This document shows positions 52,488-58,943 of a DNA stretch of 58,943 nucleotides, piece by piece. The position numbers were made by a program, and so were the translations under genes. Under the pieces are notes generated by a model, which did no database searches, had not been told where the DNA came from, and was given only the letters and a program-made list of their open reading frames with translations. The DNA comes from a virus (lineage: Duplodnaviria; Caudoviricetes). How positions within the stretch are numbered: the stretch's first letter is position 1; every line of letters starts with the position of its first letter. Location of the stretch: the IMG/VR virus record IMGVR_UViG_3300028883_000054, positions 1 through 58,943 of that record; one strand, 5' to 3'.

Positions 52488-52559
52488 TAGCGGGAGAGGG
52501 ATTTGAACCCTCGACCTTCAGGTTATGAGCCTGCTGAGCTACCGCTGCTCCATCCCGCG
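52488..52559 (-). tRNA. tRNA-fMet (CAU), CCA not encoded
   Basis: CGCGGGA-TG-GAGC-AGCGGTA-GCTC-A-GCAGG-CTCATAA-CCTGA-AGGTC-GAGGG-TTCAAAT-CCCTC-TCCCGCT-A; C1:U72 mismatch. Confidence 0.92.
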
Positions 52560-54664: not shown

Positions 54665-54773
54665 GAATATTTATGTTTTATTTAAATTATTTTTTGCCTG
54701 CAAACCTGTCAAACTCTTTATATTTTTATATTTATTATACTTATGTCGTATTATTTATTTTACTGTTTTATAT

Positions 54774-54881
54774 ATTTTTTTTTATTTTTTTTTATTTTTT
54801 GCTTGACTTTTTCAAATAAAATGTTTATATTAATAATAGATAAAGGGAATAATAAAACAAACCAAACGAGGTGAAAAAATG
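54774..54881 (+). promoter_or_regulatory. early promoter/RBS repeat, copy 1
   Basis: phased AT9 tracts, TTGACT(54803)-17-TATATT(54826), CGAGGTG RBS. Confidence 0.88.
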
Positions 54882-55187
54882 AAAACATCAAAATTTCAGA
54901 TAGCAGACGCTTTAAGTTCTAAGATGGTTGACGTAACTGCTTGGAATGTTAAATATTTAGAACATGCTAAAAAAGCAATATTTGAAAATGATGAAAAAAT
55001 CATGACAATAGAAGAAATAAAATTAAAGGTTGAAAATGAAATTGTTGGTACCACTTGGAAATTAACTATAACTACGAAAAAAGACAATAAAACTCATGTC
55101 GAATTTAGGGAGAATGAATCCGCAAAATTGGAAATATTAATGTTTGCTACATCAAGAGGATTTTTTAAAAATTTAGAAGAATTATAA
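54879..55187 (+). CDS. first early gene, hypothetical (duplicated)
   Basis: ORF after promoter; second copy spans the window ends. Confidence 0.8.
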   Translation: MKTSKFQIADALSSKMVDVTAWNVKYLEHAKKAIFENDEKIMTIEEIKLKVENEIVGTTWKLTITTKKDNKTHVEFRENESAKLEILMFATSRGFFKNLEEL

Positions 55188-55223
55188 TAACTTAATCAAG
55201 ACCTATAAACGAGGAGATACAAA

Positions 55224-55397
55224 ATGAAGACAATGACATTCACAAAGAGAGAATTAGACATGTTAAGAAGAGCGACATTTTCATTCATGGCTAGTGATGA
55301 TAGCGAAAAGTTTCAAAATGATGAAATGAATGAAATGTTTAAGAGGTTGACTAAGGCATTTAACGAAACAGAAGAAAATTCAAGCGAAGCAGCCTAA
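55224..55397 (+). CDS. 57-aa early protein ([LF]T..E...L family), not in ORF track
   Basis: GAGGAG RBS; MKTMTFTKRELDMLRRA...; TAA lies in hammerhead stem I. Confidence 0.7.
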   Translation: MKTMTFTKRELDMLRRATFSFMASDDSEKFQNDEMNEMFKRLTKAFNETEENSSEAA

Positions 55398-55443
55398 CTG
55401 ATGAGCTTTCAATAAGCGAAACTCCCTGCGGGGAGTCTTAGGC
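55392..55443 (+). ncRNA. hammerhead ribozyme, type I
   Basis: GCCTAA-CTGATGA-GCTT(TCAAT)AAGC-GAAA-CTCCC(TGCG)GGGAG-TC-TTAGGC; predicted cut after C55437. Confidence 0.93.
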
Positions 55444-55468
55444 AATTAAACAAAACGAGGAGAAAGCC

Positions 55469-55660
55469 ATGAAAACGATTAAAAATAAAGAAGAATTAGA
55501 ACACGAAGCATGGAGAATAATTCTAATTATAACAGATAACTCAATACGCGGTAGTTTACCAACGGAGGGAGAAGTTAGAAGTCTTGTAATAGAAATAAAA
55601 AAATGGAATAAATGTTATAAAGATATATCTGCAGACAATATAATTAAAAATTATTTATAA
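55469..55660 (+). CDS. small early protein
   Basis: GAGGAG RBS. Confidence 0.7.
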   Translation: MKTIKNKEELEHEAWRIILIITDNSIRGSLPTEGEVRSLVIEIKKWNKCYKDISADNIIKNYL

Positions 55661-55678
55661 GTCTAACTGATGAGCTTT
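55661..55678 (+). repeat. hammerhead 5'-half repeat
   Basis: GTCTAACTGATGAGCTTT; 16-nt identity to 55394-55409. Confidence 0.8.
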
Positions 55679-55703
55679 TAATTAAACCAAACGAGGTAAA
55701 AAA

Positions 55704-55889
55704 ATGAAAGAGAATAATTACAATTTAACAGTTGAAGAAGCTAAGGTTTTAAAGTCTGTCTTGTTAGATAAAGCGTTGAAACTTACTTATAGATGTAAAT
55801 CTTTATTAAGTCCTGATCAATTAACAGAATTGGATATTATGAATAAACAAATAGATAAATTAAGTAAATTAATTAAATCTTTTAAATAG
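55704..55889 (+). CDS. small early protein ([LF]T..E...L family)
   Basis: LTVEEAKVLKSVLLDK. Confidence 0.7.
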   Translation: MKENNYNLTVEEAKVLKSVLLDKALKLTYRCKSLLSPDQLTELDIMNKQIDKLSKLIKSFK

Positions 55890-55901
55890 AAGGAAAATAA
55901 A

Positions 55902-56132
55902 ATGGAAAATTTAAAAAATCAAGAAAATAAAGATCGAATTCCTTTAATTTTTACAGTAAAAGAAATTGAAATTTTAAAATCAATATTAATTGATAAAGTA
56001 AACGATCTCGAGTGGTTAAATCGTCCTTTATTTTTATCGGAAAAAATGCAAAAAGAATTCATCAATAAAACAATAGAAGAGATAGAACTTATAAAATCGA
56101 TTTTAATTAATACGGAAACAGATATTAAATAA
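55902..56132 (+). CDS. small early protein ([LF]T..E...L family)
   Basis: FTVKEIEILKSILIDK. Confidence 0.7.
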   Translation: MENLKNQENKDRIPLIFTVKEIEILKSILIDKVNDLEWLNRPLFLSEKMQKEFINKTIEEIELIKSILINTETDIK

Positions 56133-56156
56133 ATAATATAAAACGAGGAGAATAAA

Positions 56157-56660
56157 ATGGAGAACTATTTTAAAACCTGTGAAACCGTTGCTGATGTTAA
56201 AAAACTTTATAGAGAACTCGCGAAAGAAAATCATCCAGATCATGGCGGATCTACTCGAACAATGCAAATCATTAATGATTTGTATCATGCAAAATTAAGA
56301 AAACTGGATGGTCAAACTTCAATCGGGACAGATAAGAAAAAACATCAATATCATTATAATCACGTTGTCGAACAAGAGTTAATTGATAAAATTAACGAAT
56401 TGCTAAAAATTAAAATGATTGATGTTGAGATGGAATTAATAGGGACGTGGCTATGGGTTAAAGGAGATACGAAAAAATACAGAAAAGAATTTAAAAAATT
56501 AAAATTATGCTGGCATCCCAAGCGAAATGCTTGGTACTATCGCAAATATGATTATCGCCGAAAAATGAGCAATTTGAGCTTTGATCAATTGCGTCAGATG
56601 TACGGTTCTAAAGATATTGATCAAGAAGAGAAACAGATGAAAAAAGCTTTAAAAAAATAA
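56157..56660 (+). CDS. J-domain (DnaJ-like) protein
   Basis: VKK.YR.LA...HPD.GG....MQ.IN..Y; ELIGTWLWV.G.T C-domain. Confidence 0.85.
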   Translation: MENYFKTCETVADVKKLYRELAKENHPDHGGSTRTMQIINDLYHAKLRKLDGQTSIGTDKKKHQYHYNHVVEQELIDKINELLKIKMIDVEMELIGTWLWVKGDTKKYRKEFKKLKLCWHPKRNAWYYRKYDYRRKMSNLSFDQLRQMYGSKDIDQEEKQMKKALKK

Positions 56661-56673
56661 GCGAGGTGAAAAG

Positions 56674-56853
56674 ATGAAAACGTATAAAATTGAATTAACA
56701 GAAGTTGAAGCCGCTGTCATTAAAAATGTGCTGCAAAATACAGAGCACGATTTAGATAAATGGACAGAACCTGATGATGAAGATCTTTTAATGATTAAAG
56801 TCTGTAATAATGTTTCAAAAAAGATTTATAATACTTTCTGGGGAAAAAACTAA
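56674..56853 (+). CDS. 59-aa early protein ([LF]T..E...L family), not in ORF track
   Basis: GAGGTG RBS; MKTYKIELTEVEAAVIKNVL. Confidence 0.7.
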   Translation: MKTYKIELTEVEAAVIKNVLQNTEHDLDKWTEPDDEDLLMIKVCNNVSKKIYNTFWGKN

Positions 56854-56860
56854 CTACCAT

Positions 56861-56898
56861 AAACCTAATGCCCCGTCATTAAGGCGAGGCACTAATAA
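56861..56898 (+). repeat. intergenic hairpin repeat, copy B
   Basis: TGCCCCGTC-ATTAA-GGCGAGGCA; matches 161-198. Confidence 0.75.
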
Positions 56899-56912
56899 AC
56901 GAGGAGAAAATT

Positions 56913-57440
56913 ATGGCAACTTATAAAGAATCAATAAATAATTTAAGCGATTTAGTTAAATCGCCTCAATCTAAAATTAAAGATGCGCTTAGTGACGGTT
57001 TTTATATTAAAAATAGATGGATAGAAACAGTATTTAAGCGAGTTCCGGATAGCTTAAATTTAAGTCGGAAATATTCTCAAAGTGATGAGATAATAAATGA
57101 TTTTAAATTCCTTGCCGACTTACCGATTGAACATTTCTACGTTTTCTATCTTACCACTCGATTAGAAGTTTTAGGACTTCAATTAGCGGGAATTGGTTCA
57201 GTATTAGGAACAGAAATTGATATTCGAAATGTAACTTATAACGCCATACAATTAGGAAGCACTGCTGTTATTTTCCTTCATAATCATCCAAGCGGAGATT
57301 CTGAACCATCAAAGCCCGATAAAATTATTACAAATAAATTTAAAGCTATTTTTGAATTATTTGGAATAACTTTGGTTGACCATATAATTATTGCTTATAA
57401 TAATTATTATTCATTTGCGGATAATCGTTTAATTACATAA
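56913..57440 (+). CDS. radC: RadC-family JAB domain protein
   Basis: E.F....L, HNHPSGD..PS..D, LVDHIII, YYSF. Confidence 0.9.
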   Translation: MATYKESINNLSDLVKSPQSKIKDALSDGFYIKNRWIETVFKRVPDSLNLSRKYSQSDEIINDFKFLADLPIEHFYVFYLTTRLEVLGLQLAGIGSVLGTEIDIRNVTYNAIQLGSTAVIFLHNHPSGDSEPSKPDKIITNKFKAIFELFGITLVDHIIIAYNNYYSFADNRLIT

Positions 57441-57450
57441 TATTTTCTTT

Positions 57451-57559
57451 ATTTTTTTTTATTTTTTTTTATTTTTTGCTTGACTTTTTCAAATAAAATG
57501 TTTATATTAATAATAGATAAAGGGAATAATAAAAACAAACCAAACGAGGTGAAAAAATG
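57451..57559 (+). promoter_or_regulatory. early promoter/RBS repeat, copy 2
   Basis: TTGACT(57480)-17-TATATT(57503); near-identical to copy 1. Confidence 0.88.
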
Positions 57560-57991
57560 AAAAATTTATATGAAATAAGAACTAGCAGACATAATTTCAG
57601 AATATTATCTAATAACCTACAAGAAGCTGAAGAACAAGCTATTGAAATTATTAAAGTTAATGACCACAATCCTAATTTTTGCGGAAAGAATATGATCGTT
57701 CATCAAATTGAGAATGATACTAATTCAAAAATTTTTCAAGAAGCTTATTATAATGAATTTTTAGCATTTTTAAATAATATCGCAGGCGAAAAACTGGAAG
57801 TTATTGTTTTTGAAATTAATTATTTAGTTGTAAATATTAAGGTTTTAGGATCGGAATTAGGTACATTAAGACTTTTTAAAAATTATTCAACCCTTACTAC
57901 TCGCGATGGAATAGATCAAGGAAAATCACCTGTAACAGGACAATTTTATTTTCAACTGCAATTTGTTGAAAAAGAAGAAAATTTCAAATAG
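57557..57991 (+). CDS. hypothetical early protein
   Basis: ORF after promoter; LQEA...A..I...NP.F shared with 671..1063. Confidence 0.75.
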   Translation: MKNLYEIRTSRHNFRILSNNLQEAEEQAIEIIKVNDHNPNFCGKNMIVHQIENDTNSKIFQEAYYNEFLAFLNNIAGEKLEVIVFEINYLVVNIKVLGSELGTLRLFKNYSTLTTRDGIDQGKSPVTGQFYFQLQFVEKEENFK

Positions 57992-58807: not shown

Positions 58808-58820
58808 ACTTATGTGGTTT

Positions 58821-58928
58821 ATTTTTTTTTATTTTTTTTTATTTTTTGCTTGACTTTTTCAAATAAAATGTTTATATTAATAATAGATAAAGGGAATAAT
58901 AAAACAAACCAAACGAGGTGAAAAAATG
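58821..58928 (+). promoter_or_regulatory. early promoter/RBS repeat, copy 3
   Basis: TTGACT(58850)-17-TATATT(58873); followed by ATG AAA ACA TCA AAA TTT as in copy 1. Confidence 0.88.
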
Positions 58929-58943
58929 AAAACATCAAAATTT

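Follow-up and report, generated by a model that had tools for sequence, protein, structure and literature searches.

The locus described here raises the question of why a small phage gene should be preceded by what looks like a complete hammerhead ribozyme and followed by the 5′ half of a second one. The initial annotation of this DNA offered three readings: an alternative type II hammerhead holding the entire gene in its loop I, ribozyme sequences serving as the boundaries of a gene cassette, and a duplication that had decayed. The last one is the best supported of the three, in view of a clean 33-nt gap that removes all the catalytic 3′ parts and of a half copy that starts right after a stop codon. 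The locus is a real, ordinary example of a known phage hammerhead arrangement in which one member has decayed, and arrays of hammerheads flanking genes have been known since 2011. It adds one more phage operon with predicted hammerhead cutting and would be a clear case of array decay by a single small deletion that left a recognisable 5′ half.

The early region of the phage

The window, that is, the whole stretch of 58,943 bp that was analysed, is an IMG/VR virus record classed as linear, with a completeness of about 79%. The stretch is present in two DNA sequencing runs of marine sediment metagenomes, either of which is possibly its source, and no RNA run is listed as containing it. It belongs to a tailed phage, whose minus strand encodes the terminase large subunit, portal, major head and tape measure proteins in the interval from 25 to 49 kb. 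The ribozyme locus is located within a block of small plus-strand genes at the right end of the window. A tRNA gene with the anticodon CAT was found between the structural and early regions (52488-52559, minus strand, 61.1 bits).

An early promoter, P1, was predicted by its consensus match alone at 54803-54831 on the plus strand (TTGACT, 17 nt, TATATT). No plus-strand terminator-like site was found between P1 and the next promoter copy at 57480, and P1 is predicted to drive the operon that carries the ribozyme. P1 is part of a block of about 115 nt, a promoter-plus-leader repeat with three near-identical copies in the window (54773-54896, 57450-57573 and 58820-58943), which are composed of A/T tracts, the promoter, a leader and a start codon. 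Two of these copies are 100% alike and the third is 84% alike over 124 nt. The repeats look like early promoter cassettes of the PeSL type, and they may be the reason why the assembly ends at the last copy. This copy reaches the contig end, and its first codons are the same as those of the gene at 54879.

The locus itself comprises three small plus-strand ORFs. The upstream one (55224-55397) encodes 57 amino acids, and its TAA stop codon, at 55395-55397, is inside the 5′ strand of hammerhead stem I (a stop-to-hammerhead distance of -6). The bracketed ORF (55469-55660; 63 amino acids) has the ribosome-binding site GAGGAG at 55456-55461 and is an ORFan. Its product showed no Pfam or PHROG match, and among 5.8 billion clustered proteins it matched itself alone. 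The following ORF (55704-55889; 61 amino acids) comes after the half copy and a leader of the TAAAC..AAACGAGG type that is common in this phage.

A tandem duplication of the whole unit, gene included, was considered and rejected. The small proteins align weakly, with 11-25% identity to the first one, and this provides no support for the 63-aa gene as a paralogue of its neighbours. A weak N-terminal motif, (L/F)T..E...(L/I)(K/R)..L, was observed in the proteins encoded at 55224-55394, 55704-55886, 55902-56129 and 56674-56850, and these small early proteins may be distant paralogues; the bracketed 63-aa protein is the poorest fit to the motif. The same operon region encodes a DnaJ-like J-domain protein of 167 amino acids (56157-56660), with a Pfam score of 21.4 bits (below the cut-off of 27.8) and a match to PHROG 15863 at E 7e-30, and a RadC-like JAB domain protein (56913-57440; Pfam, 106.7 bits).

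Relatives of the phage were sought in several collections. None was found among viral contigs with the 63-aa and the 167-aa DnaJ-like proteins, or among metagenome contigs with the DnaJ-like protein. The 21-nt promoter stretch was found in 0 stretches of the viral contigs, and a blastn search of the phages collection produced no match. A 20-nt repeat pattern identified one stretch among the metagenome contigs, L079, which is an unrelated marine scaffold with a hammerhead of the type present in L015.

The upstream hammerhead and its compact family

The upstream element, at 55392-55443 on the plus strand, is a complete type I hammerhead as judged by its core, its predicted fold, a covariance model and the covariation of its family. 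It consists of an open stem I of 6 pairs (55392-55397 with 55438-55443), the core CTGATGA (55398-55404), a stem II of 4 pairs closed by a 5-nt loop (55405-55408 with 55414-55417), GAAA (55418-55421), a stem III of 5 pairs with a 4-nt loop (55422-55426 with 55431-55435) and the cut triplet GTC (55435-55437), the predicted cut being after C55437. The conserved core is complete, including CUGANGA, GAAA, the A15.1-U16.1 pair (A55421 with T55436) and the NUH triplet. Both the minimum free energy (MFE) fold and the centroid fold are the three-way junction (-19.8 kcal/mol, z = -2.25). The element scored 61.3 bits (E 4.4e-16) against a covariance model, R1, made from twelve 50-nt hammerheads that all came from other phage contigs, the window's own element having been left out. 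At the Rfam gathering level it was not reported in the window, and its scores are below threshold (HH9, 16.8 bits vs 52; RAGATH-1 hammerhead, 19.9 vs 56.3). Apart from the Rfam thresholds, all criteria that can be tested identify the element as a hammerhead. The Rfam 15 gathering thresholds applied to 63,996 bases of seven loci of other phages (L015, L018, L020, L023, L024, L026 and L033) likewise returned no hammerhead, a tRNA being the sole match.

The intact element most likely cuts the polycistronic early transcript after C55437. Such a cut would part the upstream 57-aa gene from the message of the 63-aa gene, which would then carry a 5′-OH end and a leader of 31 nt, the predicted distance from the cut to the start codon.

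To place the element in context, a family was gathered by pattern. A 16-mer that occurs twice at the locus was found in 18 IMG/VR stretches, in 6 of which it opens a complete type I hammerhead, and a core-plus-stem II pattern was found in 65 stretches. With E no higher than 0.001, R1 matched 108 times in 78 sources, and 71 of these matches are distinct. When the 71 distinct rows were aligned, 98.7% of the cells were paired and 13 of the 15 pairs had changed on both sides, in an alignment that was itself fitted to R1. The covariation score was reached by none of 500 shuffles, and slid controls dropped to 30-38% paired. The family is compact, with a 6-pair open stem I and a total length of 47-66 nt in most members. 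Hits in a scan for the three topologies numbered 99 for type I, 10 for type II and 15 for type III, with near-identical contigs counted as well. Two to five copies, spaced 245-1682 nt, are present in 32 of the 60 hammerhead-bearing loci, and the spacing of 269 nt found in the window is therefore typical.

The position of the ribozymes relative to the genes is also regular. Among the 71 distinct type I members, the hammerhead starts at a median of 0 nt past the upstream stop codon (83% within -9 to +30) and the cut is a median of 31.5 nt ahead of the next start codon. Both the complete copy in the window (-6 and 31) and the half copy (0 nt past the stop) fit this placement. Since the ribozymes are flush with the stop codon and often extend across it, the 5′ strand of stem I and the core would be hidden under a ribosome that is terminating there, a hint that cleavage may be coupled to translation of the upstream gene.

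Hammerheads of types I, II and III share core and stem II within the same arrays (L033/L036/L049 and L024/L029/L057/L062). Examples of mixed topology are found in L033 (3679-3736 and 4813-4866), on the minus strand of L024 (3814-3876) and, as type III copies, in L024, L029, L057 and L062. The sharing suggests that the topologies are related by rearrangement and not by convergence. In stem III, 1 nt separates the type II copies of L033 from the type I copies of L026. The apparently orphan CTGATGAG sites in L033/L036/L049 and L024/L029/L057/L062 were examined as candidate decayed copies and rejected, as all of them are complete type II hammerheads. In other loci, a search for orphan 3′ halves returned as candidates 37 hairpins that follow CGAAA, and on visual inspection none of them had a hammerhead context.

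Neighbouring copies were compared in 19 distinct pairs of adjacent type I hammerheads (loci L004-L076). Stem I is cross-compatible at 5 or more of its 6 pairs in 10 of the 19, and full cross-compatibility of stem II, and likewise of both stems together, is present in 2 only, these being counts taken without a null model. Stems I that are alike combined with stems II that differ would suit either pairing of the 5′ end of each excised message with the next ribozyme or avoidance of mispairing between neighbours.

These arrays resemble those described in prophages by Perreault et al. (2011, PLoS Comput Biol; PMC3088659). According to the passages of that article cited here, hammerheads of mixed types flank single genes or short blocks and three arrays cleaved in vitro, and the authors raised the processing into single-gene mRNAs, possible circular products and the possibility that some copies are non-functional. 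The hammerheads studied here agree with those passages in being intergenic and encoded on the same strand as the genes of a phage operon, in enclosing small genes whose identity varies and in combining different topologies within a cluster. In contrast to the arrays in the same passages, the window has one intact copy and a 5′ half, and the family is compact and scores below the Rfam gathering level. The family-level results may outweigh those on the locus itself: the scores below Rfam thresholds, the placement flush with stop codons, the three topologies per array, the like stems I and unlike stems II, and the homology breakpoints described below. If confirmed on independent data, they would bear on why phages carry gene-by-gene arrays of ribozymes and on whether ribozymes also shape the exchange of modules.

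The downstream half copy

The 16-mer reported by the initial annotation at 55394-55409 and 55663-55678 occurs exactly twice in the window, and allowing up to 2 mismatches added no further match. Chance would give an expected count of 0.07, and 0 of 100 shuffles contained two matches, which excludes a chance origin of the pair. The bare motifs are not significant, since 28 of 100 shuffles contained CTGATGAG twice and 23 of 100 contained a gapped core pattern once. Beyond the 16-mer the similarity continues, giving a repeat of 23 nt (55391-55413 and 55660-55682) in which 21 of 23 positions are identical and the starts are 269 nt apart. The two copies flank the gene at 55469-55660, so that the 63-aa ORF and its ribosome-binding site are between them, as had been noted. 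The pairings named in the same annotation were also found, with 6 pairs, one of them G-U, between 55438-55443 and 55661-55666 and 4 pairs between 55414-55417 and 55674-55677. This complementarity is not an independent coincidence, because the downstream element copies the 5′ half of the upstream one.

The downstream element (55661-55682, plus strand) has the features of a vestigial 5′ half of a second hammerhead, as judged by the repeat, the 33-nt gap and the model score. It keeps the 5′ strand of stem I (55661-55666), CTGATGA (55667-55673), the 5′ strand of stem II (55674-55677) and a portion of loop II. It has neither GAAA nor a stem III, a cut site or a 3′ strand of stem I, and the defining features of a hammerhead are thus absent from the half. 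On 55661-55687, R1 scored 13.5 bits (E 0.18) with 31 of the 50 model positions deleted. The intergenic regions that contain the complete and the half copy align with a single gap of 33 nt, equivalent to 55414-55446, which takes out the 3′ strand of stem II, GAAA, stem III, the cut site and the 3′ strand of stem I. Past the gap, both regions share the leader motif and the ribosome-binding site. The edges of the gap in the upstream copy have the same 4 nt on either side; with the upstream copy taken as a proxy for the lost sequence, we infer that this would fit a slippage deletion. A downstream 3′ half hidden behind a giant stem II insert was considered and rejected: the window has no other exact 3′-half motif (stem I or stem II 3′ strand) outside 55414-55443, and R1 run with its filters off found nothing else above 13.5 bits.

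The half copy also retains the marks of its family. The distance between the stop codon of the 63-aa ORF and the half is 0 nt, which is the placement of intact type I members, and over its 23 nt the half does not differ from the 5′ half of an intact hammerhead present in L015 and L079. The two positions at which it differs from the upstream copy are thus in states found in working relatives, and one of these states would have had its own stem I partner. Taken together, the sequence features make it probable that the half is a decayed second member of an array, and the locus is likely to be a short hammerhead array in an early operon that has lost one of its two members. A second, paralogous hammerhead would once have been located after the 63-aa gene, with 55661-55682 as its 5′ half. 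As judged from the alignment, a deletion of about 33 nt between short microhomologies of the AAT type would have removed the 3′ parts and fused the remnant straight to the leader of the next gene. The half would not be catalytic, and its complementarity to the upstream 3′ half would be inherited and not selected.

Several observations weigh against decay. The collections searched yielded no relatives of the phage that would display the ancestral complete copy or the deletion directly. Clean 5′ halves seldom occur. The 567,435 nt of hammerhead strands contain 36 CTGANGAG sites outside complete hammerheads, where about 35 are expected by chance, and the one in the window is the sole clean half; one in L023 is ambiguous, and three are complete copies missed by the scan or cut by a contig end. 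Full cross-fit between neighbours, at 2 of 19 pairs, is not automatic, which slightly favours a relationship that is selected or very recent. The complete copy is also below the curated Rfam thresholds (HH9 and RAGATH-1).

The initial annotation had proposed that the two elements form an alternative type II hammerhead with the gene inside loop I. The pairings and the topology of this proposal stood, and its predicted population turned out to be negligible. The parts between 55414 and 55677 are in the natural order of a type II hammerhead, with 6 and 4 pairs around an intact core and cut site, and the topology is legitimate because real type II members occur in the same family. When a 477-nt context was folded with ViennaRNA, the local type I fold had a probability of 0.07 and the permuted fold one of 2e-6, about 35,000 times less. 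Removal of the upstream half raised the latter to 5.6e-4, still not as the MFE fold, in what is a thermodynamic prediction only.

A functional discontinuous hammerhead, with 55414-55443 as its 3′ half and the downstream segment 55661-55677 as its 5′ half, assembled around the 63-aa gene, would provide a second route to the cut after C55437, for instance when a ribosome on the stop codon in stem I blocks the local fold. The upstream stop codon does overlap stem I, the helices of 6 and 4 pairs exist, and neighbours are seldom cross-compatible in full. In the arrays of other phages, type I is accompanied by type II and type III forms with the same core and stem II, and split hammerheads with hundreds of nucleotides between their parts are known in mammalian mRNAs, as summarised in PMC2920678. 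The predicted populations argue against this form. In addition, the bond that it would cut is the one that the local ribozyme cuts, and transcription completes the local fold about 230 nt sooner. Just 4 pairs would form the open stem II, where natural type II hammerheads have longer ones (6 pairs in L033), and the downstream half abuts a stop codon as well and is equally open to occlusion by a ribosome. The 567 kb of hammerhead strands yielded no second example. On this balance, the model of a functional discontinuous hammerhead is highly improbable. The slightly broader proposal, in which the half is not debris and acts as part of a discontinuous type II hammerhead or at least of an end-to-end helix enclosing the gene, used when termination at the stop codon blocks the local fold, is only marginally less so and still very unlikely.

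The nearest model for such a permuted arrangement would be the split hammerhead in the 3′ UTR of rodent C-type lectin mRNAs (Martick et al. 2008, as summarised in PMC2920678). In that summary, as in the window, two segments of one transcript, hundreds of nucleotides apart, are able to form a complete core. The rodent ribozyme, as presented there, has no complete local competitor, conserves its tertiary contacts and has demonstrated activity, whereas in the window a complete local ribozyme uses the same 3′ half and the long-range fold is predicted to be negligible. Permutation by duplication, a model for circularly permuted enzymes, is mentioned as applicable to ribozymes in a passage of PMC10085705. 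A complete copy followed by a distant 5′ half is the layout expected halfway from a tandem pair to a permuted type II hammerhead, and if the broader proposal were true the locus would represent such an intermediate of permutation by duplication in nature and would link the coexisting types I, II and III. Unlike in that model, the parts in the window are 217 nt apart with a gene between them.

Another possible use of the half is as a site for end pairing, in which the 5′-OH end of the cleaved message (55438-55443) would pair with 55661-55666 past the stop codon and loop the message, which is also what a stem I shared by intact members of an array would permit. The six pairs exist at the locus, and the cross-compatibility of stem I in 10 of 19 neighbour pairs, though stem II usually differs, suggests that the identity of stem I is maintained. 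However, the helix has a predicted probability of 3e-3 in the cleaved product and, as there is no downstream cut, no ligatable 3′ end would be formed. Spliced or circular products were sought and not detected by Perreault et al., as stated in the part of PMC3088659 cited. We regard retention for end pairing as extremely improbable, below any of the discontinuous forms, and the decay of a second array member is still the preferred explanation of the half.

Hammerheads as possible boundaries of single-gene modules

The initial annotation had also pointed out that a crossover between the repeats would free a 269-bp circle carrying one complete hammerhead, and the geometry of the locus agrees with this, the hammerhead in the circle being a permuted one. 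Deletion between the repeats would leave only half a ribozyme in the genome, and the reverse event needs a target that already has only a half. The closest precedent for such exchanges is found in the PeSL cassettes of T4-type phages, for which the passages of Arbiol et al. (2010; PMC2839356) cited here describe how recombination between neighbouring copies deletes, inserts and circularises single-gene modules. In the region of those cassettes, a hyperplastic early region, repeated intergenic regulatory motifs flank ORFans, and in the window direct repeats (23 nt, 21/23, 269 nt apart) flank a single ORFan. By the same passages, PeSLs differ from the repeat in the window in being promoter-terminator DNA motifs, with mini-circles shown by inverse PCR, whereas the repeat consists of 23 nt of ribozyme sequence. 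The closer analogue of PeSLs in the window is its own set of promoter repeats of about 115 nt.

These considerations lead to a further explanation of the half, as a recombination scar left where hammerheads serve as crossover points for the swapping of single-gene modules. The half would be the trace of an inexact exchange by which the 63-aa ORFan was either acquired or left behind, and the 23-nt repeats could still mediate its loss. The ORFan nature of the bracketed gene and the PeSL precedent, mini-circles included (as given in the cited passages of PMC2839356), are in line with this idea, and comparisons between other phages add to it. Collinearity of L026 and L035 ends 3 nt before the hammerhead, the identity between L024 and L029 jumps from 81.5% to 97.8% exactly at the hammerhead, and in L033 and L049 the gene between two hammerheads has been replaced. 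Internal HSP ends no more than 20 nt from a hammerhead numbered 102 of 676, against 33.7 expected. In dereplicated contigs of other phages (45 of the 60 loci, 83 pairs), a breakpoint was found in 35 of 64 intergenic gaps with a hammerhead and in 56 of 210 without one (odds ratio 3.3, Fisher p 6e-5).

The breakpoint enrichment is to be taken as suggestive, because the counts are non-independent and confined to variable early regions; they may also reflect the general variability of those regions and of gene boundaries. A role of hammerheads as cassette boundaries has suggestive support at the level of the family, in other phages. As for the scar in the window, a homologous crossover between hammerheads restores complete copies, and an illegitimate step would still be required to produce the half. 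Entry of the 269-bp circle by a Campbell-type event needs a target that already holds only half a ribozyme, and 23 bp with 2 mismatches is a poor substrate for recombination beside the region's three promoter repeats, each about 115 nt long. An origin of the half as a recombination scar is accordingly unlikely, if the most plausible of the alternatives to simple decay.

The contigs assembled from the two sequencing runs were inspected for rearrangements at the locus. One contig of 2342 nt in each run spans 55136-57000 with zero differences from the window. At the 269-nt repeats, no joint, deletion, back-joint or circle junction was found in the contigs of the two runs, which are blind to rare variants. 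The joints listed in these contigs are 54885>55444, 55206>55452 and 55993>56475, with sides of 23-28 letters, and they are located at shared leader motifs. One run contig diverges from the window after 55206 (region 55136-55206). Run contigs also carry variants of the first early gene, with 8 differences in 128 nt (55022-55149), which means that the samples also contain a related strain or phage.
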